Positions 1-35,293 of a stretch of DNA of 64,000 nucleotides are shown here, in pieces. Every line of letters starts with the position of its first letter. Position 1 is the stretch's first letter. Below the pieces are notes generated by a model. That model was not told the origin of the DNA, did no database searches, and was given only the letters and a program-made list of their open reading frames with translations. Location: the NCBI GenBank assembly GCA_028818155.1, contig JAPPOH010000001.1, positions 192,598 through 256,597 on the forward strand. Direction: 5' to 3'. The translations under genes were made by a program, and so were the position numbers. This stretch comes from Candidatus Woesearchaeota archaeon. GTDB taxonomy: Archaea; Nanobdellota; Nanobdellia; Woesearchaeales; UBA525.

Positions 1-3000
1 ATTGTGCGTGCGAGTCGGATGGTGATTGTCCAGGCAGCAGAAACGTCTGTGAGGTTGCTCGGTGCCTCAATCCTGGGACTGCGCAGGCGGTGTGTGTGAT
101 TGAGCCTGCTGAAGACGGCAATAGGTGTACTGATGATGGCGATATTTGCACAACTGATGTGTGTCTTGCTGGCGTGTGCACGCACAACAACAATGGCGTC
201 TGTCTCTGTACTGATGATAGCGAGTGTCCTGCAAGTGCAAACAGTTGCGAGGTAGCGAAGTGTTTCAACGCGGGAACACCTGCTGCATCCTGCGGTTTCG
301 AGAATGCGGAGGATGGGAATAGGTGTACTGATGATGGTGATATTTGCACAACTGATGTCTGCCAAGCTGGTGTCTGTGAACACAATGATAATGGTGTGTG
401 TGCGTGCCTCTCAAGTAACGATTGCCCAAGCAGTGGTAATGTGTGCGAAGAGCCATTCTGCTTTAACCCAGGCACGCCACAAGCGGTCTGTGGCTTCCAA
501 CCGAAAACTGACGGGACGCAATGTATTGATGATTTCGATATCTGTACTGCTGACGTCTGCCTCGCAGGAGTTTGTACGCACGATGATACTGGGGAGTGTG
601 ATTGTCGAATAGATGAAGACTGTCCAGAGAGTAGGAATGTCTGTGAAGATCCACTCTGCCTCAATCCTGGAACGCCGCAAGCAACGTGCACATTCCAACC
701 AAAGAGTGATGGGACGCAATGCACTGATGATAACAATGTCTGTACGGACGATGTCTGTCTCGCTGGTGTCTGTGAGCATGATGATAATGGTGCGTGTGCG
801 TGCGAGTCGGATGCTGATTGCCCAGGAAGTGCGAACAGTTGTGAGGTTGCGCGATGCTTGAATCCAGGAACGGCGCAGGCGGTGTGTGTGATCGAGAATG
901 CAGAGGATGGGAATAGCTGTGATGATGACTTTAATATTTGCACAACTGATGTGTGTCTTGCAGGAATTTGCACACACAATGATAATGGTGCGTGTGCGTG
1001 CGAGTCGGATGCTGATTGCCCAGATAATGGGAACGCGTGCCAAGAGCCGGTGTGCTTGAACCCCGGCACTGTGGATGCGACATGTGACTTCGCGCCAGCG
1101 AATGAAGGGCTCGTGTGCGGTAATGATGGAAACGAATGCACGACGGATACGTGTCAAGCCGGCGCATGTGTGAACGCGAATGTTGCTGATCAGACAATGT
1201 GCTCGGATGATAACAACCAATGCACGGATGACGTCTGCCTTGCTGGCGTGTGCACACATGACAATAACGGCGTATGTGAATGTCAAACAACGGATGATTG
1301 TACGCCGAGCACGAACGTCTGCCAGACCGTCACGTGTGTGAACCCTGGCACGGAGAATGCGTTCTGCGATACGGAATTCCTCCCGGACAATACACAATGC
1401 ACTGATGATTTCGATGTCTGTACTGCTGATGTCTGCCTCGCAGGCCAGTGTACCCATGAAGAGACTGGCGAGTGTGTCTGTGATACATGGGAAGACTGCC
1501 CAACAACTGAGAACACGTGCCAGATCCCTGTCTGTCTAAACGGGGGGACGCCTGACTCGGAGTGTGGCTTCGCTGATAACCCTGATGGTGTGACGTGCGC
1601 AAGTGATGGGGATGAGTGTACTGCTGACACGTGCCTTGCTGGTGCGTGTATCCATACAAACAATAACCTCTGTCGGTGTACCGTTGCTGATGACTGCCCT
1701 CCAAGTACGAACGAGTGTGAAGTGCCGGTGTGCGTGAACCCGGGAACAGTCGACGCGGCATGTAGCTTCGAGAACGCTCCTGATGATCTTTCATGCGCGG
1801 ATGACGGTGATGCGTGCACGGAAGATATCTGCACTGCTGGTGTCTGCACGCACAAGGATAACGGCCTCTGTGCATGTGAGTTTGATACCGATTGCCCTGC
1901 TGGCGATGCATTCTGCCAGATTCCACGATGTTTCGATGCAGGCACACCGAACGCAATCTGTGGCTTTGAGAACTTCCCTGATCAGACTGACTGCCCAGGT
2001 GATGGTGATGTCTGTACCGCTGATGTGTGTGTTGCTGGCATCTGCACACACGATAGTAACGGCCTCTGTGGTTGTTTCAACAATGATGACTGTCCAGACA
2101 ATGGGAATGAGTGTCAAGAGCCACTCTGTCTTAATCCGGGCACGGTAGACTCTGAATGTAGTTTCCAAAACCTCCCTGATGAGACGATGTGCTTGAGTGA
2201 TGACAATATCTGCACAACAGATGTGTGTGTTGCTGGCACGTGCGAACATCAAGATAAAGATGTTTGTGCCTGCGAGTCAGATGCAGAGTGCCCAGCCAGT
2301 GCCAATTCATGCGAGATCCCACGGTGCTTCAACCCAGGAACAGTCGATGCAGTTTGTGGTTTTGAAGCACTTCCTGACGACACCGCATGTGCTGATGACA
2401 ATGACCAGTGTACTGCTGATGTCTGCCTTGCTGGCGTCTGCACGCACGAGGACAACGGCCTCTGCGGCTGCAGTACCGATGATGATTGTCCAATCTGCGA
2501 GAACGAGTGTCAGAAGTCCACGTGCTTCAACCCAGGAACGCCTGAGGCGTTCTGTGACTTCGAAGACCTCCCATACGATACGCCGTGCACGCCAGATAGT
2601 AACGCATGCACACTTGATGTCTGCCGTTCTGGCGTGTGTAGTCACCCGGCAAGTAACGTGTGCCAATGCACGAAAGACAGCGACTGTCCAACTGGCGATA
2701 GCTGCCAGATCCCTCGCTGCTTTGGCAAGGGAACGATTAACGCGCAATGTGGCTTCGAGAACAAACCGGAGCTGACCACATGCGTAAATGACTTTAACCT
2801 CTGCACGGACGATATTTGTGTTGCTGGCATCTGCTCACACCTTGATAACGGTATCTGCCGATGTTCATCCAGCGATGATTGTCCAACGAGTGATAACTCC
2901 TGCGAGGAAGCACTCTGCGTGAACCCGGGAACGGAAGATTCCTATTGTGCATTCATTGACCTCCCTGATGCGAGCCAGTGTGTTGGTGATGGGGATGAGT

Positions 3001-4274
3001 GTACTGCAGATATTTGTGTTGCTGGCGTGTGTACGCACGCTGACAATGGCGCGTGCTTCTGTGATGATGATAAGGACTGCCCACGAGGCTTGAACGTCTG
3101 TAAGATTGGCAAGTGTCTCAACCCTGGCACGGTAAACGCGGTGTGTGGCTTCGAAGATAGGCCTGATAACACGCGGTGCACGAATGATGGGAACGCATGC
3201 ACAAATGATATCTGCCTTGCTGGTGTCTGCACGCATGAAGTTGACCAATCTTGTGTCTGTACAATGGACAGCCAGTGCCCACAGAGCAGTAATCCATGCG
3301 AAGAGCGCAGATGCTTTAGCCCAGGACAGAACAACGCGACGTGCGGCTTTGTCGATAAAGCAGACAACACGGCATGCCCTGATGATGGTGACGTCTGCAC
3401 GTCTGACGTCTGCCTTGCCGGTGTGTGCACGCACAGCAGTACAGGGGCATGCAACTGTAACAATGATGGTGACTGTCCTGCGAGCACGAGCGTCTGTCAG
3501 GTTGCAACGTGTTTCAACCCAGGAACCCCTGCATCATCTTGTGGCTTTGTGAACCTTGCGGATGATACAGCATGCACTGCGGACGGCACGTTCTGCACAG
3601 ATGATGTGTGCAGGAGTGGTGTGTGTGAGCATATCAAGAACAATCTCTGCGATTGCGTTGTTGATGGCGACTGCCCACGTGGCTTGAATGTCTGTATGGC
3701 AGCACTCTGTGTGAACCCTGGCACGGTGAACGCGTTCTGTGACTTTGTAGAACGCCCTGATAACACGCTCTGCACGAGTGACGGTGACGTCTGCACTTCT
3801 GATGTCTGTCAGAATGGTGTGTGTGAGCACATTGAGAATACCCTCTGCTCGTGTACGGATGATGCGCAGTGTCCTGACAACGCGAACGTCTGCCAAGTGC
3901 CGCGATGCATTGTTGACGGGAATGGTGCGCAGTGCGGCTTTGGGAACGCACTGAACTACTTACCGTGCCCTGACGGGTTGTGGTGTAATGGCGAGGAGAT
4001 CTGCTGGAACGGCGTCTGTGAGGCGCTCGAACAAGCGTGCCCTGCAGAACTCTGTGATGAGGATACGGACACGTGTACGGAGATCTGCACGGATGCATGT
4101 AACCCTGCTGAGTTCCCAGACTGTACGTCGGATAGTGCTGGCGTTGAGACGTGCGAGCTCGCGCTGGATGGCTGCTATGATATCGTGACGACTGCATGCC
4201 CTGCGGATCACGCGTGCGTGGATGGGGCTTGTGTCGAGAAATGTGGCTTTAGCGTCTCGTGCCCTGGACCATAG
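1..4274 (+). CDS. Giant secreted cysteine-rich tandem-repeat protein, 5' end lies outside the window
   Basis: The frame is open from base 3 and continuous with ORF 90..4274. It holds about 22 tandem modules of about 62 aa with the pattern CxC..D.DCP.S.N.CE...C.NPGT..A.C.F....DG..CTDD.D.CT.DVC.AG.C.H.DNG. The second half-module resembles Dictyostelium CTDC-type Cys repeats. A 45-nt perfect DNA repeat occurs at 781-825 and 979-1023. Confidence 0.85.
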   Translation, partial: CACESDGDCPGSRNVCEVARCLNPGTAQAVCVIEPAEDGNRCTDDGDICTTDVCLAGVCTHNNNGVCLCTDDSECPASANSCEVAKCFNAGTPAASCGFENAEDGNRCTDDGDICTTDVCQAGVCEHNDNGVCACLSSNDCPSSGNVCEEPFCFNPGTPQAVCGFQPKTDGTQCIDDFDICTADVCLAGVCTHDDTGECDCRIDEDCPESRNVCEDPLCLNPGTPQATCTFQPKSDGTQCTDDNNVCTDDVCLAGVCEHDDNGACACESDADCPGSANSCEVARCLNPGTAQAVCVIENAEDGNSCDDDFNICTTDVCLAGICTHNDNGACACESDADCPDNGNACQEPVCLNPGTVDATCDFAPANEGLVCGNDGNECTTDTCQAGACVNANVADQTMCSDDNNQCTDDVCLAGVCTHDNNGVCECQTTDDCTPSTNVCQTVTCVNPGTENAFCDTEFLPDNTQCTDDFDVCTADVCLAGQCTHEETGECVCDTWEDCPTTENTCQIPVCLNGGTPDSECGFADNPDGVTCASDGDECTADTCLAGACIHTNNNLCRCTVADDCPPSTNECEVPVCVNPGTVDAACSFENAPDDLSCADDGDACTEDICTAGVCTHKDNGLCACEFDTDCPAGDAFCQIPRCFDAGTPNAICGFENFPDQTDCPGDGDVCTADVCVAGICTHDSNGLCGCFNNDDCPDNGNECQEPLCLNPGTVDSECSFQNLPDETMCLSDDNICTTDVCVAGTCEHQDKDVCACESDAECPASANSCEIPRCFNPGTVDAVCGFEALPDDTACADDNDQCTADVCLAGVCTHEDNGLCGCSTDDDCPICENECQKSTCFNPGTPEAFCDFEDLPYDTPCTPDSNACTLDVCRSGVCSHPASNVCQCTKDSDCPTGDSCQIPRCFGKGTINAQCGFENKPELTTCVNDFNLCTDDICVAGICSHLDNGICRCSSSDDCPTSDNSCEEALCVNPGTEDSYCAFIDLPDASQCVGDGDECTADICVAGVCTHADNGACFCDDDKDCPRGLNVCKIGKCLNPGTVNAVCGFEDRPDNTRCTNDGNACTNDICLAGVCTHEVDQSCVCTMDSQCPQSSNPCEERRCFSPGQNNATCGFVDKADNTACPDDGDVCTSDVCLAGVCTHSSTGACNCNNDGDCPASTSVCQVATCFNPGTPASSCGFVNLADDTACTADGTFCTDDVCRSGVCEHIKNNLCDCVVDGDCPRGLNVCMAALCVNPGTVNAFCDFVERPDNTLCTSDGDVCTSDVCQNGVCEHIENTLCSCTDDAQCPDNANVCQVPRCIVDGNGAQCGFGNALNYLPCPDGLWCNGEEICWNGVCEALEQACPAELCDEDTDTCTEICTDACNPAEFPDCTSDSAGVETCELALDGCYDIVTTACPADHACVDGACVEKCGFSVSCPGP

Positions 4275-26760: not shown

Positions 26761-27963
26761 CTAGCGCGGCTTGAGCATCGGATCGAGGAGCTCAGGCTCG
26801 TCAGGCCGCCGGTCAACTAGCAGCCGATTGAGCAGTTGGTGCAGCTTTTCTTCGATTGCTGCGATGCGCTCGTCCACGAGTGCCTTCTCTCGTTCCATTG
26901 CGCCAAGTTGTCGCTCAAGCGCAGTCTTCGCTTCCGAAGTGAGGAGGTCTTCATCAGTGATGGTGTCGTGCATCCCGAGGAACTCGGTGTAGTACGCAAC
27001 CATGTCTGCTGTGGTCCAGCCGAACCTGTGCATGAACGCGCTTTCGTGTTTGTATTTTGGGCGCCAGTAGCACGCGCTTGAGTGTCGGAAGTCGTACAGG
27101 GTGAGCTCTGGGTAGGTCTTGCCGGCTGCACTCGTTCCGTCGCCGAGGACTCGACTTCCGAGGGCCTTGAGGTAGCGATTCGCGACGGAGGGTGAGAAGT
27201 CGAAAATGTACTGGTCCGGTTTGAGTCCTTGGTCGTGGATGTATTCGCGCAAGAGCGGCGGGCAGTGGAGCAGGGTGATCTTCCTGCCGAAGGTCTTGCT
27301 GGTTTCCTCGCGAATGTGGAGCTGCGTGCAATCTTCTGTGAGATCGCGGACGCGGACGTTGACGAGTTCGGTCGGCGCGCGGATGCCGCTGTCGTAGAGA
27401 AAGCGGATGAGGACTTGGTACTTGTAATTCGCGTGTCGGCAGAGTTTCTCGACTTCCTGCTCGGTGAGGTAGACCCAGCGGGGCTTCTCGCACCGGGTGT
27501 CGAGTTCTTCGCAGATGTCAACAACGGTCTGTCCGCCTCGCTTTTTTACCTTCATGTGCCAGTGCCAGAAGGTTTTGAAGACTTTGACGTAGTCGCCGGT
27601 GCTCTTGTACTTCTCGCCGTCGCGGCGGCGGATCTCTCCGTTGCGCATGCGGCTGAAGCAGGCGTGGGCATGCGATTCGGTTGCGTTGGTCAGGGGGTCA
27701 ACGTCGAGATGTGCAGAGAACAGCCTGGCGAGGAAGCTCAGTTTTGTCCGGAGTGCGTTGAGGTGGAGAAAGCTCCGGCCGCCTTTCTTGCTGCTCCTTG
27801 AGATGTTCCTGCCGATCTCCATGTCCGCGAGGAACGCGCGGAGGCACGCGGAGTTCGCACTGCTCACACCCGGGATGCCGTCGGCTGTTGCTTGCTGCCA
27901 TCGCCGGTACTGGGCTTCGCTTTGGTATGGGTCTCGCTTCACGTGTTTGTTCGACGGGTGCAC
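26761..27963 (-). CDS. Tyrosine recombinase / phage-type integrase
   Basis: C-terminal catalytic region LTLYDFRHSSACYW...HRFGWTTADMVAYYTEF (H-x-x-R and terminal Tyr). It lies adjacent to the tRNA 3' end. Confidence 0.8.
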   Translation of the reverse strand: MHPSNKHVKRDPYQSEAQYRRWQQATADGIPGVSSANSACLRAFLADMEIGRNISRSSKKGGRSFLHLNALRTKLSFLARLFSAHLDVDPLTNATESHAHACFSRMRNGEIRRRDGEKYKSTGDYVKVFKTFWHWHMKVKKRGGQTVVDICEELDTRCEKPRWVYLTEQEVEKLCRHANYKYQVLIRFLYDSGIRAPTELVNVRVRDLTEDCTQLHIREETSKTFGRKITLLHCPPLLREYIHDQGLKPDQYIFDFSPSVANRYLKALGSRVLGDGTSAAGKTYPELTLYDFRHSSACYWRPKYKHESAFMHRFGWTTADMVAYYTEFLGMHDTITDEDLLTSEAKTALERQLGAMEREKALVDERIAAIEEKLHQLLNRLLVDRRPDEPELLDPMLKPR

Positions 27964-28023
27964 TGCCTTTAAGGCGTTGCACTGGCAAGGCTGGTATCTC
28001 CTGAGAATGCGCGGTTCGTATCA

Positions 28024-28095
28024 AGCCCCCGGAGAGATTTGAACTCCCGACCTGCGGTTTACAAAACCGCCGCTCTACCGCTGAGCTACGGAGGC
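28024..28095 (-). tRNA. tRNA-Thr (anticodon UGU), no encoded CCA
   Basis: Hand-folded cloverleaf: GCCTCCG/CGGGGGC acceptor, GCTC/GAGC D stem, GCGGT-TTTGTAA-ACCGC anticodon arm, GGGAG-TTCAAAT-CTCTC T arm. Confidence 0.9.
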
Positions 28096-28713: not shown

Positions 28714-30204
28714 ATGGCAGAATATGGTCCTCCTAAACTAGAGGCTCCTCGAGGTAGAGGGCTCTCTGTAAGGAATTCTCTTGGCGGACTTAGCAGTATC
28801 GCTGTCAGTGCGTATGCAGCTGCGATTTCGCTTGCGAGCCCACTCGCTGCATTGCAACCACGACATGAGCAGCCAATGGCTGCACAAGGATACTCGGAAG
28901 GGCTCATGCGTGGTGCAAGCGGAGCGACATATGCTGCCGCGAAACAAGGTGAAGCAACGCTTGCTGTGTCTGTGAATGATGTGTATGGCGCACTGCTCGC
29001 AAATCAGAATCATCAACTCTGGCAGCTTGCAGAAACAGGTGGTATGGCAAACATTCCATCGTTGAATGAGCTTCTTGCTGAGCTTGGTGCGCCGCAGAGT
29101 AGTTCGTCAGGATTACGTCACACACTTGATGCCGGGACGTCAGGATCGAGCAGGTTCGGCACACCTCGCGGAACGCTTGACAGAGTCAGAGTATACTCCG
29201 GAATGAGTTCAATGGCTGGCGCGAAAGTCGTCGCATATGACGCTGTTAGTGGCGATGAGGTCACGCAAGGATCTGCTGAGGCGAACGGCACAGCATACTT
29301 AGGATTGCAGCATGGGCAGTACAGAGTGCAACTGACCAGAGGTACTGCAGAGTTCGATCTTCATCCGGTTGAGTACTTGGTGAATGTTGATCAGGACGGT
29401 GTTATTGGTGTTGAACTTCCTGCAGTACGTAAAGAAGTAGATATTCCTGCAACTGGGTTGAGCAATCCATTTATTTGGGAGCCTTTGTGGACACCACAGG
29501 GCCAAAATATATCGCTTCTTGAGCGCTTGTATATGAATGACTCGAGGCCGCCAGAACTCCAACCAAGAGACGGACTTAGTTACTTAACGATGGATCCTGC
29601 AAACGGTGTCTACGAAGCACTCATAGAACGTGAAGGATTGGAAGCGGTTGCAGCGGCCAAAGGAGTTCCTGAGTGGTTCATCGCTCAACAGATAGGAAAT
29701 GCACTTCGACACAAGCCATTCCTAAACGAAGCGGCGAGTGGGGAGAATATCAATGTGCGCCTTATTGACAGAGCAGATGTTCCTGAAACATTACCTCCTG
29801 GTTGCATTTTGTATAGGGGAAATGCGGAGAACCCTGATCTGGTTGCTACAGTAAGAAGAAATGTTGATCCGAGTGGCAGATTTGCAGAGAGTATTATTAT
29901 CACTTATGGTAGGAATTCGAGCCAAGCTATTTTCGATCACGAAACATTGCAAGCTACGGACTTTACTAGTGATGGGGGAGATACTTCCATAGGAGAAAAT
30001 CCTAATGGCATTAGTGTTCACGGGGAAAAATTCGCTTCAGGTCCAACAATTAGCGATGCGCTTAGAGCGTACACAATTCGAGCCCTCGGCGCAGGAACAC
30101 GACTCATTAACCATCCAGAACTTGGCAAAATGTTCAGCCGGCTTGAGTATCCATTAGAAACAATCATCATTCGAGAAGCAGGAAAAAGTGCTCCGAGATA
30201 TTAA
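28714..30204 (+). CDS. Hypothetical protein (496 aa) with a possible carboxypeptidase-regulatory-like beta-sandwich
   Basis: VRVYSGMSSMAGAKVVAYDAVSGDEV...ANGTAYLGLQHGQYRVQL resembles CarboxypepD_reg. Otherwise an orphan. Confidence 0.5.
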   Translation: MAEYGPPKLEAPRGRGLSVRNSLGGLSSIAVSAYAAAISLASPLAALQPRHEQPMAAQGYSEGLMRGASGATYAAAKQGEATLAVSVNDVYGALLANQNHQLWQLAETGGMANIPSLNELLAELGAPQSSSSGLRHTLDAGTSGSSRFGTPRGTLDRVRVYSGMSSMAGAKVVAYDAVSGDEVTQGSAEANGTAYLGLQHGQYRVQLTRGTAEFDLHPVEYLVNVDQDGVIGVELPAVRKEVDIPATGLSNPFIWEPLWTPQGQNISLLERLYMNDSRPPELQPRDGLSYLTMDPANGVYEALIEREGLEAVAAAKGVPEWFIAQQIGNALRHKPFLNEAASGENINVRLIDRADVPETLPPGCILYRGNAENPDLVATVRRNVDPSGRFAESIIITYGRNSSQAIFDHETLQATDFTSDGGDTSIGENPNGISVHGEKFASGPTISDALRAYTIRALGAGTRLINHPELGKMFSRLEYPLETIIIREAGKSAPRY

Positions 30205-30254: not shown

Positions 30255-30264
30255 TTTATAAATA
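30255..30264 (+). promoter_or_regulatory. TATA box of the 1668-aa surface protein gene
   Basis: TTTATAAATA, centred 27 nt before the ATG at 30287. Confidence 0.6.
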
Positions 30265-30286: not shown

Positions 30287-33200
30287 ATGGGTAAGGGTGT
30301 GGTTGTACTATTCTTGTTCCTCGTGAGTCTTGCACCTGCTTTCGCGTTTCATGCAGGCGATCACTCGGTATGTTCACAAATTATCGAAGAAAATCCAGAA
30401 ATGGGTACGTGCACTTGTACGAACTCACAACCTAATTTCTTTGGATGCCTTCCAGATAATGATCCTGAGCAGTTAACTGGCGATCCACACCAGGATAGTT
30501 GTATCCCTGGAGCAAGTCCCACGTGTGATTTTAACTTTTGTGCATATGGTGCAAATTGTGGCGTGTGGGGTCAGTGCATTGTGCAGAGTGGAGAAGTCTG
30601 CTATCACCCACACGATCCGCCAGCATGTGCGTGTGAATGTGATCCTGGACTTCGCTTCTGTGAATCCGCGGGAGCCTGCTTACCCGATACTGATGGTGAT
30701 GGAACAGCTGACGGTTGCCTCCCAGCACACTGTACAGATGGTGTAATGAATGGTGATGAACTAAATACTGATTGTGGCGGCTCATGTGACGCGTGCACCT
30801 GCACGGGAAGCACTGTGAGAGCATGTGATCCTGCATGCGCAGGGACTGAAACACGAACGTGCAACACTGACGGCACGTGGTCTGCCTGGAGCGGCTGCCC
30901 GGAAGTGTGCTGTGGTGAAACTTCAGTATGTAATGATGATGTTGATTGTTGTGATGATCTAGAATGTATAGATCACAATTCTGATGGTACGAAAACTTGC
31001 GAAGAATCAGGAACTGAATGCCCACTAACTCCAACTCCAGAAACAGAAGACCGCATCTGGACAACATGCGACACCTGCGGCTACGAGCAATGGGTCTGTA
31101 CAGCAGGTTCACCAAACACATTCCAATTCGGCAGCTGCATCGAACCAACAGACGCTGACGGCGACGGCTTCTTCGCCGATGCTGGCGTGCACGGCACGTG
31201 CCCAGTCGACTGTGACGATAGCACGTACAGCGCGACAAACACGTGTGGTTGTACGACCCCAGATGATTGTCCTGATGACACAAATCTCTGCACCTACAAA
31301 ACATGCGTAGCTGGCATCTGCGGCCAAGCAAATCTCCCTGACTCAACGCCACCGATTGGCGCGGGGACGTGCCAGACAGTTACGTGTAGTGGTGGTGTAG
31401 AAGTGCCGCATGATGACAACCCATACTGTGACGATGGCGCAGGGAATGGCGTCTGTTGCGGTTGGGGTGGCTTCAGCGTGTGCTGTGGTGATGGTGCTCC
31501 CGGATACTTCTGTGCGAATGATGCAAGCGAGTGCACAGCATGTAATAATAATGGTGCACAAGACAATGGTGAGACTGGCGTCGATTGTGGCGGCGGTGGC
31601 TGTCCGAACTGTCTCGTCTGCAACTGGAACAGCATAACCGATAACGGCGAAGCGGGCACTGACTGTGGCGGTGGTGGCTGCCCTGCTTGTAGCTGTGATT
31701 TCAACAGCGCGACATACCCGTCTGGTTCTTCCATTCAGTGTGGCACTGATGAAGGTGTCTGTGAGTTTGGCACGCAAACGTGCTCTGTATCTGGCGTCTG
31801 GGGCTCCTGTACTGGTGCGCTTGGCCCAACCGAAGGAACGGAACTCTCGTGTGATGGGCAAGATAACGATTGCGATGGCACGATTGACGAGAGTCCTGTC
31901 TGCTGTGTGGATGGTGATGGGGATGGCTACCAAGTCGAAGGTGCAACGTGCGGCACGTGCACGGAATGGGATCCTATTTTCACGACAACGTGCATTCAAT
32001 GGACGTCCTGCCTCTGTGGGACGCCGGATTGCAATGATAATAATAACGCGCTTACAACAAACTGCTGTGCAACTGGCAATAACAACGGTGTCTGTGAAGC
32101 GACAGATTGTACGTGTACAGCTGCAGGTCAAGATTGCGCGGTGGTAGCTGAGTTCAACGCCGTCTGCGGCGGCTGCGGTAATAATAATGGTGCTTGTGAG
32201 GCAGGCGAGTGTAACTGTAAAGCACCTGGTCAGGATTGTGATGCAACAGTAGGTAACACGTATCCTGCATGTCCTGAGATCTGTACGGTTGGCGATAACG
32301 ATGGCGTCTGTGAGGCAGGTGAGTGTTCCTGTGACCAAGCAGGTCAGGATTGTGATGCGACGGTCACGACGCCTGCAATCTGTGTAGACACTGAAATTTG
32401 CAATAATGATCTTGATGATGACGGAAATGGAGAGTGCAATTATGATGGGCGGCGCGCGTCCAATACAGCACTGACGTGTGGCACAAAAGGCGATATCGCG
32501 TGTGCCGTTGATGTGGTCATGGCATCTATTGATACAACGAATATTTGTACGAGTAGCGAGGTTGTTGTCTCCTGTGAAGTAAGCCAGCGAGGCATTCACA
32601 GTATCACTGCAACGCTGAATGGTGCAAGCTGCTCCTTTGAAAACTGGCACCCAACAGATCCAGTCGCGAACTTCAGGTGCACTGGCGTTTCTCCTGGCGG
32701 CCTCTTTGCACAGTGTGTGATTGATGAAACAATATCCTATGTGGACACACTCGGTAGTGTGTCTGCAATCACAAACGTTCCTGTGTGTCCGACAGCAGAG
32801 ATCTGCGCGAATGATGTGGATGACGATTTCAATGGTGAGTGTGATTACGATGGCGTGGGGTGCCAGCCATTCTTCCAAAAGGGAGATATCGCGTGCCCTG
32901 TGGACATGGTGGCTGCCAGCTTCGTCTCTGGCGATCCATGCACGGGACAAGTGACTGTCTCTTGCGAGACATCCGTTCGTAATCTTGCGAGTGTCCGTGC
33001 AACGTATAATGGTGTGGGATGCTCGTGGACACACTGGCATGCAACGCAGCCGATCGCGTACTTCTCGTGTAACGCGCCCGGTATTTCTGGAGCTGGTGGC
33101 TATGGTGTCCAGTGTTCGATCGATGAGACGATGTCGTATGTAGGAACAACAGCGAGTCAGACGACGCTTGGTAGTGTCTTCTGCCCAGTGGCGGAGATTT

Positions 33201-35293
33201 GTAATAATGATATTGATGATGATTTGAATGGCGAATGTGATTATGACGGTCAGGTCGGGTGCAGTCCGATCTTGAACAAAGGAGATAGTGCATGTCCTGT
33301 GCACGTCACGAGCGCATTCCTGGATGATACAAACACGTGCATGACAAACACAGCAACCATCTCGTGTGGTGTGAGTGCAGATTACGTAGGGAGCATCAGA
33401 GCAACACTCACTGGCTCGGCCTGTTCATTCGAGAGCTGGGTGCACGCACAACTTGCACGATTCACGTGCACAGGAGTTCCTGAGGGAACGCTCACAGCAG
33501 AGTGCTTCATTGACGATACGGTGTCGTATGTTGATGGGCCGAGCATGACGGACGTCAAGGTTGTCTCGTGCCCGTGCCCGATTGATGGTGTCTGTACGCC
33601 AGGTGAGTGTGGTTGCACGATCCCTGGCCAGGATTGTAGTAATCCAATCGTGCGAGAGCCAATCTGTTGTAACGCAGATGGCGTGTGTGATACGTTCTGT
33701 GCAAACGATCCTGATTGTTGCAGTGATGGCGATAACGATGGCACATGTGAGACTGGCGAATGCTCCTGTACTGGTGTAGGCCAAGATTGTAGCGTCCCTG
33801 CTGAACACACTGCTGTCTGCTGTGTCGCTGATGGCTATTGCGAGCCGACCTGTTCTGGCACAAGTGATCCGGACTGTACGGAAGTCTGTGACAATGGTGC
33901 TGATGATAACGGGAATGGTGATATTGATTGCGATGACGTACAATGTTCCTGCGCATGCACAACAAATGCTGACTGTGGCGTGGACGGCCAGTGTAACACG
34001 TTCACCTGCTTGAATCCCGCTACGACAAGCTCCTCCTGCCAAGAAAATTTCGAACCAAGCACAACGCTCTGCACTGATGATGGGAATGAATGTACTGACA
34101 ATCATTGCTCTGGTGTGGACGCGAGCTGTGTGACAACGCTGCTAACAGGCACATCTTGTACGGGTGGCACGTGTCAGAGTGGCGTTTGTATCGTTTGCGA
34201 TAATGATGGTGATGGCTTTAACAGGACGGATGTTCCATTGTACTGTGAGAATGGCATCGATTGTGATGATACTAATGATCAAGTCACAGGCCACGCTGAG
34301 AATGTCCTCCCTGCCACGTGCTCTGATGGCTGGGATAACGACTGTGATGGCGAGGCTGACTATGATGGCTCGGGCGATGTGCTCGCGAATTACGGCCTGA
34401 CTGACCCGCTCCATGGTGACGTGAACTGTCCCGTGGATATCACAGGCGGCACGGCAGCTGATGTGAACACCGTTGCAACGTGCACAGCAAATACAGTGGA
34501 AGTCCGATGCACTGCAAACCCGCTTGTGGTGCGAAGTATCAGTGCCGAGTTTGATGGAACAAACATGGGCGACGGTGTTTTAATCGGAAGTGAGCAAGTC
34601 TTCACGATCTCACGTCCTGCTGATGGAACGTATACAGCCAGATGCTTCGTTGACCCTGCAAAATCCTACCAGACAGGCCCTGACTGGACTGATAATAGCG
34701 TGTCCGTCGATTGTTTCAAGACGGTCGAAGGTACAGTCACAGATATCACGACAACACATCCTATCGAGGATGCGACTGTGCGCATCGGCACGATCAGCAC
34801 GGGCCCTATCGAGACGACGACAGATCAGAACGGCTACTACCAATTCAGTATCGTTGAGCTCGGCAATCATGACTTCAGCGTGACGCACGAGTACTACCTC
34901 GACAACTACAAAGTGGATGAGCCGATCTTGAGCGAGCCGACAACAGTGAACTTTGCGCTCAGCCCAGAGCAGTGCACGGGAGATTGCACGTTCCTGGGCA
35001 TCTGTAATTACAAGTGTCTTGATGAGGGGGATTGCTCCATCGCGGGTGTTGACCCTGCTGATCTGGATGCGTTCAAGTCCGTGTGTGATCAGGCGACGCA
35101 TGGCGAGCCACGATTCTTTAACGCGACGCACGACGCGATCTGTTGCACGGGAGGGATTGAACCGAATAACGTCAGGAAGACACCACTCGTGATCGAGAGT
35201 TGCACAGAGCAGCTGATCCAGCACAAGAAGCTCGTCGAGTATAACGGGAAGTTACACCAGTTAACGATCGTCTCGTACGAGAAGTGCGAGTAG
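30287..35293 (+). CDS. Giant (1668 aa) secreted mosaic cysteine-rich surface protein
   Basis: Signal MGKGVVVLFLFLVSLAPAFA. MopE-like CDGQDNDCDGTIDE. About six G-DNDG-CE-GEC-C-GQDC units. Three tandem ~133-aa modules starting ICNNDxDDDxNGECDYDG (period about 400 nt at 32393, 32798, 33193) plus a fourth at about 34320. CTDDGNECTDNHC (CTDC-like). CarboxypepD_reg-like VEGTVTD...DQNGYYQF near the C-terminus. Confidence 0.85.
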   Translation: MGKGVVVLFLFLVSLAPAFAFHAGDHSVCSQIIEENPEMGTCTCTNSQPNFFGCLPDNDPEQLTGDPHQDSCIPGASPTCDFNFCAYGANCGVWGQCIVQSGEVCYHPHDPPACACECDPGLRFCESAGACLPDTDGDGTADGCLPAHCTDGVMNGDELNTDCGGSCDACTCTGSTVRACDPACAGTETRTCNTDGTWSAWSGCPEVCCGETSVCNDDVDCCDDLECIDHNSDGTKTCEESGTECPLTPTPETEDRIWTTCDTCGYEQWVCTAGSPNTFQFGSCIEPTDADGDGFFADAGVHGTCPVDCDDSTYSATNTCGCTTPDDCPDDTNLCTYKTCVAGICGQANLPDSTPPIGAGTCQTVTCSGGVEVPHDDNPYCDDGAGNGVCCGWGGFSVCCGDGAPGYFCANDASECTACNNNGAQDNGETGVDCGGGGCPNCLVCNWNSITDNGEAGTDCGGGGCPACSCDFNSATYPSGSSIQCGTDEGVCEFGTQTCSVSGVWGSCTGALGPTEGTELSCDGQDNDCDGTIDESPVCCVDGDGDGYQVEGATCGTCTEWDPIFTTTCIQWTSCLCGTPDCNDNNNALTTNCCATGNNNGVCEATDCTCTAAGQDCAVVAEFNAVCGGCGNNNGACEAGECNCKAPGQDCDATVGNTYPACPEICTVGDNDGVCEAGECSCDQAGQDCDATVTTPAICVDTEICNNDLDDDGNGECNYDGRRASNTALTCGTKGDIACAVDVVMASIDTTNICTSSEVVVSCEVSQRGIHSITATLNGASCSFENWHPTDPVANFRCTGVSPGGLFAQCVIDETISYVDTLGSVSAITNVPVCPTAEICANDVDDDFNGECDYDGVGCQPFFQKGDIACPVDMVAASFVSGDPCTGQVTVSCETSVRNLASVRATYNGVGCSWTHWHATQPIAYFSCNAPGISGAGGYGVQCSIDETMSYVGTTASQTTLGSVFCPVAEICNNDIDDDLNGECDYDGQVGCSPILNKGDSACPVHVTSAFLDDTNTCMTNTATISCGVSADYVGSIRATLTGSACSFESWVHAQLARFTCTGVPEGTLTAECFIDDTVSYVDGPSMTDVKVVSCPCPIDGVCTPGECGCTIPGQDCSNPIVREPICCNADGVCDTFCANDPDCCSDGDNDGTCETGECSCTGVGQDCSVPAEHTAVCCVADGYCEPTCSGTSDPDCTEVCDNGADDNGNGDIDCDDVQCSCACTTNADCGVDGQCNTFTCLNPATTSSSCQENFEPSTTLCTDDGNECTDNHCSGVDASCVTTLLTGTSCTGGTCQSGVCIVCDNDGDGFNRTDVPLYCENGIDCDDTNDQVTGHAENVLPATCSDGWDNDCDGEADYDGSGDVLANYGLTDPLHGDVNCPVDITGGTAADVNTVATCTANTVEVRCTANPLVVRSISAEFDGTNMGDGVLIGSEQVFTISRPADGTYTARCFVDPAKSYQTGPDWTDNSVSVDCFKTVEGTVTDITTTHPIEDATVRIGTISTGPIETTTDQNGYYQFSIVELGNHDFSVTHEYYLDNYKVDEPILSEPTTVNFALSPEQCTGDCTFLGICNYKCLDEGDCSIAGVDPADLDAFKSVCDQATHGEPRFFNATHDAICCTGGIEPNNVRKTPLVIESCTEQLIQHKKLVEYNGKLHQLTIVSYEKCE

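Follow-up and report, generated by a model that had tools for sequence, protein, structure and literature searches.

A large cysteine-rich protein of a woesearchaeal genome carries a conserved C-terminal cassette whose genes are linked to type IV pilus-like loci in some relatives

Woesearchaeota and other DPANN archaea are believed to live in attachment to other cells, and next to nothing is known of the molecules that make the contact. The window analyzed here, a stretch of 64,000 nt on contig JAPPOH010000001.1 of a Candidatus Woesearchaeota archaeon (assembly GCA_028818155.1), encodes a 1668-amino-acid (aa) protein, P0001, in which cysteine-rich repeats of several kinds are strung together. 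The locus raises the question of what such a protein does outside the cell and what holds it there. A sequence-only reading had described P0001 as a secreted Cys-rich mosaic with a signal peptide, and the open reading frame (ORF), the composition, and the N-terminal hydrophobic peak agree with that description. The same reading missed the C-terminal domain (CTD), the restriction of conservation to the C-terminal part, and the link to type IV pilus genes. From these features we favor, with evenly balanced confidence, the interpretation that P0001 is a non-pilin, pilus-associated adhesin, stabilized by disulfides and probably by calcium, that is analogous but not homologous to PilY1. The elements on which this argument depends are as follows.

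30287–35293, + strand: ORF of P0001, 1668 aa, intact and without an internal stop codon.
34316–34720, + strand: fourth, canonical copy of a ~133-aa module (aa 1344–1478), TCSDGWDNDCDGEADYDG ... HGD..CPV plus a predicted immunoglobulin (Ig)-like sandwich; it opens the conserved C-terminal cassette.
34721–34960, + strand: CarboxypepD_reg domain (PF13620; transthyretin-like beta-sandwich), aa 1479–1558, 37.4 bits against a cut-off of 32.3.
34961–35290, + strand: CTD, aa 1559–1668, with ten conserved cysteines, an N-x-T sequon at N1612, and a terminal beta-hairpin and cysteine.

When the whole protein was searched against 8 other genomes of the genus, matches were limited to residues ~1105–1668, and the best of them reached the last residue. 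Same-genus relatives share only the last ~380–520 residues. In genome G007 the positional ortholog, with an AI-2E transporter gene and thrS beside it, measures 774 aa, of which only the C-terminal ~380 are shared with P0001. Judged by these alignments, only the C-terminal third of P0001 is conserved among relatives, and the N-terminal part is variable. The conserved cassette runs in the order module, CarboxypepD_reg, and ~110-aa CTD. CarboxypepD_reg is the only domain of P0001 that Pfam recognizes above threshold; the match covers positions 1–81 of the 82-position profile and bears out the earlier call of a CarboxypepD_reg-like beta-sandwich. This domain was modeled with a mean predicted local distance difference test score (pLDDT) of about 71, and its adjacency to the module recurs in relatives. 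The CTD of P0001 scores 145 bits against the CTD profile, keeps every conserved column, and ends in ...SYEKCE. It found no match in Pfam and no sequence match in the PDB. By these searches the CTD is an undescribed domain and the family-defining part of P0001, and the family is defined by a C-terminal cassette consisting of an acidic Cys motif (accompanied in P0001 by an Ig-like module), CarboxypepD_reg, and the 10-Cys CTD.

An even sample of the order, 201 genomes from 169 genera, contained the CTD in 45 genomes and 40 genera. Of these 45 genomes, 43 have a single copy, and the open frames that the CTD ends are 80 to 3013 aa long. The CTD closes the protein in every case examined, with the terminal cysteine at most 2 residues from the stop, and every module-bearing protein sampled in the taxonomic family that could be read to its own C terminus ends in it. 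Distant CTD proteins lack the module; in these, an acidic motif, C.DG.D.D(C/G)D..ID.DDPDC, stands directly before CarboxypepD_reg (L036, L038, L046, L035, and L044). By eye only, this arrangement resembles that of teneurin, in which an acidic C.D..D.DGD..D(C).D..C motif precedes a CarboxypepD_reg-type sandwich (motif table in PMC3278476). Unlike teneurin, the CTD family has no NHL, YD, or toxin parts, and an Ig-like domain lies between motif and sandwich.

Recovery of the family depended on search settings. The default composition-bias filter of HMMER dropped 8 of 14 genuine CTD matches, and the --max option recovered all of them at E values of 1e-8 to 1e-15. Because this filter hides matches in Cys-rich sequence, negative results from default Pfam and phmmer searches are weak. 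Word-based searches returned nothing with the 325-aa cassette alone and one true relative, P0086, with region 1344–1668. Matches from the full-length homolog search were PF11617 repeat proteins that align many times to one ~65-aa unit; they were set aside as not being true relatives.

The gene neighborhoods of the CTD suggest what it might contact. Regions of 14–20 kb around CTD genes from 14 distant genomes and 4 genomes of the taxonomic family (19 loci) were compared by clustering the neighboring ORFs. In 8 of the 19 loci, the CTD gene has genes of two pilin-like families next to it on the same strand, often overlapping it; they lie directly downstream in seven and upstream in genome G009. 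Family A proteins are 166–190 aa long, begin with KKG/YFFTLDAF followed by a hydrophobic helix, and end in WGP..AEVRVWQ; family B proteins are ~330 aa long and begin with KKG/VFFTL. Both N termini look like class III (prepilin) signals. Five loci (L033, L055, L058, L059, and L065) contain T2SSE ATPase and T2SSF homologs within about 8 kb, and in L055, L058, and L059 the stretch from the CTD gene to T2SSE/T2SSF is one contiguous same-strand operon. Pfam identified T2SSE in L058 at 131 bits and T2SSF there at only 22 bits, in a frame cut by the end of the locus. In the other loci both were assigned by BLAST clustering, the T2SSF cluster through the homology of its L033 member to a T2SSF of the P0001 genome (60.9 bits). 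Between B and the ATPase, L058 also encodes a ~900–1000-aa protein with weak TPR-like Pfam matches, and L055 has a homolog of it.

This association extends across the order sample. Family A, which has a short form and long forms of 600–1700 aa, was found in 139 of the 201 genomes (69%), and none of the 45 CTD-positive genomes lacks it (hypergeometric P=4e-9). In at least 13 of these 45, the 2 kb downstream of the CTD gene contain a short-form A gene on the same strand. This number, taken from the family A matches listed and from many short contigs, is a lower bound; 9 of the 45 genomes were not assignable for A–CTD proximity. The genome of P0001 itself has a pilus-like locus at contig C8:7408–15048, encoding a short-form A (163 aa), B, two small proteins, T2SSE (139 bits), two T2SSF proteins, and two pilins. 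It begins with A and has no CTD gene. A second pilus-like locus, at C15:65000–80000 (L066), encodes a 1028-aa long-form A with a VWA domain, B, a PilB3-type ATPase, two T2SSF proteins, and two pilins. In G009, a member of the same taxonomic family and another genus, the module- and CTD-bearing gene lies inside the counterpart of this C15-type locus. From its gene neighborhoods the CTD family thus appears tied to this pilus system, the gene having moved away from the locus in the present genus.

Entry of P0001 into the Sec pathway is predicted from its N terminus, judged by eye.

30287–30349, + strand: putative Sec-type signal peptide, aa 1–21, cleavage probably after AFA.

The only hydrophobic peak of P0001 is this N-terminal segment, MGKGVVVLFLFLVSLAPAFA/F, and other family members likewise have Sec-type N termini. 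After export, the Cys-rich units and Ig-like modules would be locked by disulfides, and the acidic DxDxDG-type motifs heading the modules would bind Ca2+. Disulfides and Ca2+ would together give a stiff, protease-resistant, and largely unglycosylated stalk. The CTD would dock P0001 onto the minor-pilin pair A/B of a type IV pilus-like filament, for which the C8 locus is the candidate partner in the same genome. The lineage-specific N-terminal ~1100 residues, module triplication included, would point outward as the variable part that binds a host cell or surface.

Close parallels to this scheme are PilY1 and PilC, the non-pilin tip adhesins of type IVa pili in Pseudomonas, Myxococcus, and Neisseria, which, like P0001, are large and have a type I (Sec) signal in place of a prepilin one (PMC7541494, PMC8833165). 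Their pattern of type I signal, variable N-terminal region, and conserved C-terminal domain is seen in P0001. PilY1 is encoded in minor-pilin clusters (PMC7541494), the PilY1/PilC genes lying within or at the head of them; CTD genes are so placed in at least 13 of 45 genomes and in G009, but not in the present genome or genus. PilY1 function is calcium-dependent, and P0001 has acidic motifs of the calcium-binding type. The C-terminal domain of PilY1 is a ~500-aa beta-propeller, whereas P0001 ends in a ~110-aa 10-Cys domain after CarboxypepD_reg. No Pfam family, that of the PilY1 propeller included, matches these 110 aa, and they are too few for a propeller. With a CTD that is a different and much smaller domain, P0001 falls outside the PilY1 family. 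It further differs from PilY1 in its extreme Cys content, in belonging to an archaeon without an outer membrane, and in that its interaction with pilins is a predicted one.

Large secreted putative adhesins recur in archaeal type IV pilus loci (PMC4858521). Makarova, Koonin, and Albers (2016) described there signal-peptide proteins encoded beside minor pilins, the ATPase, and TadC and proposed them as tip adhesins, a concept that we share; those candidates use DUF2341 and other domains, not the module/CarboxypepD_reg/CTD cassette. The same survey expects the conserved cysteines of some archaeal pilus systems to form disulfides, and the term DPANN is absent from its main text (PMC4858521). We propose tentatively, and with more doubt than we attach to P0001 itself, that CTD cassette proteins in general are the archaeal, DPANN-specific counterpart of PilY1: non-pilin tip adhesins that would dock by the 10-Cys domain on a two-member minor-pilin complex, with hypervariable, disulfide-knotted N-terminal regions setting the choice of host cell or surface for an episymbiont. 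If true, this would provide the first sequence-defined candidate for host recognition in uncultured Woesearchaeota and add two new protein domain families. An unannotated gene has become a member of a defined family with two domains absent from Pfam and the PDB, and the family's link, in gene order and in distribution across genomes, to one kind of type IV pilus operon, together with a partner locus named in the same genome, yields a testable model of pilus-mediated attachment.

Several observations weigh against attachment to a pilus. The P0001 gene lies ~145 kb from one pilus locus, with the other locus on a different contig, nor is the gene adjacent to pilus genes in the other genomes of the genus that were examined. 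Of the 45 CTD-positive genomes, at least 23 have no listed family A gene near the CTD gene, many of the contigs being short. With family A present in 69% of genomes, co-occurrence by itself says little, and P=4e-9 is too strong a figure given that the genomes are related. Neither family A nor family B has a Pfam match, so that the pilin-like call comes from the N-terminal motif only. The AlphaFold model of the CTD is poor (pLDDT 25–58 over most of the domain, ~70 in the last hairpin), because only two sequences covered the CTD in the alignment. Finally, the disulfide-forming enzyme candidate VKOR occurs together with the CTD in 10 genomes of the order sample against 13.7 expected (Fisher P=0.2); as VKOR does not track the CTD family, it is not a general requirement.

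The distance between the gene and the pilus genes in this genus also speaks for a pilus-independent envelope protein, in which the cassette would fasten P0001 noncovalently to the cell's own S-layer or membrane, or build a matrix, and the pilin neighborhood elsewhere would reflect co-regulation. CarboxypepD_reg and Ig-like domains, being generic adhesin stalk domains, would suit such a protein. A general anchor, however, would be expected on several proteins per genome, and the CTD is single in 43 of 45. Moreover, in many families unrelated to each other the CTD gene is translationally coupled to pilin-like genes; this coupling and the 45 of 45 co-occurrence with family A argue for a specific partner, and we regard the pilus-independent alternative as unlikely.

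The linkage between CTD and pilin genes would also fit a cargo protein, which the type IV filament machine would export or present as its substrate, much as the pseudopilus of the type II secretion system (T2SS) does, and which would then be released onto a host cell or polymers. Consistent with release, hydrophobicity gave no C-terminal transmembrane segment or membrane anchor in P0001, and PilY1 on its minor-pilin tip resembles a T2SS substrate in position (PMC7541494). Yet Pfam and NCBIfam scans detected no catalytic or toxin domain across the 1668 aa, the architecture is that of a repetitive stalk, and archaea have no outer membrane that would need a pseudopilus piston. These points make a cargo role improbable and leave a pilus-associated adhesin as the interpretation that we prefer.

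What, then, would the stalk of such an adhesin be made of? The canonical module of the cassette has three further copies upstream.

32396–33586, + strand: three tandem modules (aa 704–838, 839–970, and 971–1100), starting at nt 32396, 32801, and 33197.

Each tandem module consists of an acidic motif, ICxNDxDDDxNGECDYDG ... GD..CPV, followed by a predicted Ig-like beta-sandwich. Self BLAST and alignment gave amino acid identities of 44–51% among the tandem copies and 30–36% between these and the fourth, taken as aa 1344–1482. Their DNA is only 52–56% identical, fewer than half of the identical residues share a codon, and Tandem Repeats Finder reported nothing on the P0001 gene. The ~400-nt period is thus a protein-level and not a DNA repeat; the three ~133-aa tandem copies and diverged fourth noted earlier stand, with their period holding only for the protein. 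On the same evidence, the duplications are therefore judged to be old and the copies to have been kept by selection.

A profile of the four copies was searched against 1.84 billion representative proteins and matched 109 at E<=1e-3, a lower bound under the default HMMER filter, and 72 at E<=1e-10, most matches spanning the full module. The named relatives come from Candidatus Woesearchaeota and Nanoarchaeota metagenome-assembled genomes. The consensus reads C.DG.DNDC(D/N)GE.DYD ... HGD..CPV, followed by a sandwich with conserved C60, S69, C79, W84, F93, C95, C107, and SY. The four P0001 copies score 94–111 bits against the profile, the fourth best (111 bits); in copies 1–3 one cysteine sits at position C14 instead of C10, and the C79–C95 pair is missing from copy 4. 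Similarity to a Pfam family is confined to the first ~25 residues of the module, which match PF11617 at E<=1 in 13 of 30 modules. This is the C.DG.DNDCDG..DE motif of PF11617 repeat proteins from myxobacteria and other bacteria, which heads the fourth module and recurs at aa 523–536; in the ~130-aa module it precedes an Ig-like part that has no family. That remainder has no Pfam family and no sequence relative in the PDB, where searches with the module gave noise only, and its Ig-family sequence matches are marginal. The modules therefore did not fall into a single well-characterized family, an outcome for which the sequence-only reading had allowed. By the Pfam and PDB searches, the ~133-aa module is a rare, undescribed domain absent from both.

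The fold of the module could be modeled with more success than that of the CTD. In an AlphaFold (AF2) model from a 16-row alignment, the sandwich has a pLDDT of about 90, and the best Foldseek matches were tandem Ig-like domains of the Gram-positive pilins BcpA, T6, and EbpB, of the Ca-binding adhesin SiiE, and of intimin. The C-terminal ~100 residues of the module are accordingly modeled as an Ig-like beta-sandwich, in line with the earlier call. The matches are weak (E 3e-4 to 1e-2, 10–17% identity) and so indicate a generic Ig-like stalk fold rather than family membership. SiiE, intimin, BcpA, T6, and EbpB have tandem beta-sandwich stalks like the module–CarboxypepD_reg pair of P0001; they are stabilized by isopeptide bonds or Ca2+, not by multiple disulfides.

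Within its own genome, the module occurs in P0001 only. Of 18 other genomes in the same taxonomic family 14 have it, but of 22 other families sampled from the order only 2 do. In a module tree of the taxonomic family, a long stem leads to a single clade made up of the tandem copies (99/97 support), so that, by this tree, the triplication is private to the P0001 lineage; the fourth copy is loosely placed with the CTD-proximal modules found in other members of the genus. Another genome of the genus (G003:C28; L032, 6808–15650) has two adjacent paralogs of 1425 and 1439 aa, with three and two modules, respectively, both ending in a CTD, and thus module number and gene copy number vary within the genus. 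Nearly identical ~1380-aa module-bearing proteins are found in L006 (Candidatus Woesearchaeota RIFCSPHIGHO2_01_FULL_47_16) and L007 (CAZHJH010000061.1), the latter labeled as an uncultured Methanosarcinales archaeon. This label may reflect a binning error or transfer between symbiont and host.

The composition of P0001 is extreme, with 182 cysteines (10.9%), 10.4% Asp, 11% Gly, 10.9% Thr, and 257 Asp and Glu against 39 Lys and Arg. Over 131 modules, Cys columns come and go two at a time: C79–C95 with phi 0.91, C60–C107 with phi 0.70, and C51–C132 with phi 0.58. The C79–C95 pair is absent as a unit in five modules, copy 4 of P0001 included. Paired gain and loss is the pattern expected of disulfides, which we infer for these columns. 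Two homologs of VKOR (86 and 82 bits) are present in the genome, as are several DsbA-like Thioredoxin_4 domains.

The pattern D.D.DG, a known calcium-binding pattern, occurs 8 times in P0001 against 0.2 expected by shuffling. The acidic motif stands at the N-terminal end of each Ig-like module, and the N-terminal ends of Ig-like modules are frequent Ca2+ sites in adhesin rods. P0001 probably binds calcium, as far as these motifs can tell.

An alternative use of the same residues would be extracellular metal binding or scavenging, with Cys thiolates and MopE-like motifs binding Cu, Zn, or Fe in place of disulfide formation. The 182 cysteines and 257 acidic residues would suit such a protein, and Woesearchaeota are often found in anoxic settings, where disulfides are less favored. 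There is also a motif-level likeness to PF11617, which is named after the copper protein MopE. The PF11617 match is nevertheless below threshold, and the profile is unspecific and reaches only a small part of MopE, the copper site of MopE lying outside it (PMC6189053). The paired loss of module cysteines and the presence of VKOR and DsbA-like oxidoreductases argue for disulfides instead. By eye, we saw no CxxC-rich or His-rich metal-site pattern, and no metal-handling gene was recognizable beside P0001 or in the partly annotated neighborhoods of relatives. We consider metal scavenging highly improbable and retain the disulfide-stabilized adhesin.

Glycosylation sequons run counter to cysteine content in the giant secreted proteins of this genome. 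P0001 has 2 N-x-S/T sequons where 16.2 were expected, and none of 2000 shuffles gave 2 or fewer. An AglB/STT3 homolog is encoded. Sequons are depleted in the Cys-rich secreted giants (2 against 16 in P0001, 4 against 38 in a neighboring protein with 14.8% Cys, and 4 against 11 in another), whereas they are enriched in Cys-poor giants (269 against 94 expected, 216 against 68, and 80 against 25; contigs C2, C13, C14, and C17 compared). These counts suggest that glycan shielding and disulfide knotting are alternative surface-protein designs in one genome. A single small genome would thus hold two opposite designs, one Cys-poor and sequon-saturated, the other Cys-rich and sequon-depleted.

The remaining repeats lie in the N-terminal region and between the third and fourth modules.

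30350–32395, + strand: lineage-specific Cys-rich N-terminal region, aa 22–703, without a Pfam match.
31838–31891, + strand: subthreshold PF11617 (Cu-binding_MopE) match ELSCDGQDNDCDGTIDES, aa 518–535, 23.1 bits against a 27-bit cut-off (six-frame family search).
33572–33790, + strand: two further GQDC units, aa ~1096–1117 and 1147–1168, with a CC-containing variant unit between them.
33887–33952, + strand: motif CDNGADDNGNGDIDCDDVQC, aa 1201–1222, teneurin-like C.D..DNDGDG..DC.D..C, by eye only.
33944–34201, + strand: one copy of a ~62-aa Cys-rich unit, aa ~1220–1305, CTDDGNECTDNHC.

No homologs of the N-terminal region (aa 22–703) were found in same-genus genomes except for one match to a DCGG motif. 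This motif, NGxxDxxExxxDCGGxC, occurs three times in P0001 (aa ~148–172, 417–443, and 444–468) and is common to P0001 and four other proteins of the genome. The region further contains a MopE-like unit (aa ~470–536) and three GQDC units (aa ~596–689). The GQDC unit, G(D/N)NDGxCExGECxCxxxGQDC, was found in no other protein examined. An earlier count had put the ~28-aa unit at about six copies; the unit type holds and the number does not, as five copies are clear, with GQDC starting at aa 614, 648, 686, 1114, and 1165. The MopE-like motif is CDGQDNDCDGTIDE at aa 523–536, and the unit that contains it aligns at 40–52% identity with PF11617-bearing repeat proteins. Default hmmscan reports no PF11617 in P0001, so the previous MopE-like label keeps its motif resemblance and loses the family assignment, the 23.1-bit match falling short of the 27-bit threshold.

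The ~62-aa unit has the consensus C.C..N.DC..DG.C....C.NP.T.S.SC...C.DDGN.CT.D.C and is repeated at least 34 times in the neighboring 3069-aa, 14.8%-Cys protein, the 3′ part of whose gene occupies positions 1–4274 of the window. A unit common to the two proteins, as proposed earlier, is borne out. The name CTDC-like stays a motif-level resemblance: PF00526 (Dicty_CTDC; 27-bit cut-off) has no match in P0001 and reaches only 18–22 bits in the 3069-aa neighbor. No Cys-rich segment of P0001 matches Pfam, and NCBIfam has no match anywhere in the protein. All of the repeat types named earlier were found on checking, which agrees with the claim of at least five.

The gene stands in an assembly of 1.64 Mb in 17 contigs, with 47% GC, 87% completeness, and an archaeal 16S rRNA gene.

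30255–30264, + strand: TATA-like box TTTATAAATA, read from the sequence, 23–32 nt before the ATG.

From the position of this box, the P0001 gene seems to have its own promoter, and its mRNA is probably leaderless or has a very short leader. A repetitive gene in a metagenome-assembled genome could be an assembly chimera of repeats, or a pseudogene still open by chance. An interrupted frame, which the sequence-only reading had named as telling against its view, was not seen: the frame is uninterrupted in the assembly, over 5 kb and with its own TATA box. Repeats that are 52–56% identical in DNA make a repeat-collapse misassembly unlikely. In addition, the CTD has lost neither its sequon nor any of its conserved cysteines, and the fourth module scores best against the family profile. 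An artifact or a decaying gene is, on this evidence, barely credible.

The next gene after P0001 encodes an alpha/beta hydrolase; it is convergent and abuts the P0001 stop codon. Upstream, a 496-aa ORF (28714–30204) was considered as a conserved partner of P0001 and rejected, since it was not found in any of the 8 other genomes of the genus; it has no Pfam match and, by these searches, is either an orphan gene or not a gene. Farther upstream, at 26761–28095, a 400-aa tyrosine recombinase-like ORF abuts the 3′ end of tRNA-Thr(TGT) (28024–28095, − strand). The GC content is raised locally (0.574), and an integrated element probably lies to the left of tRNA-Thr(TGT).

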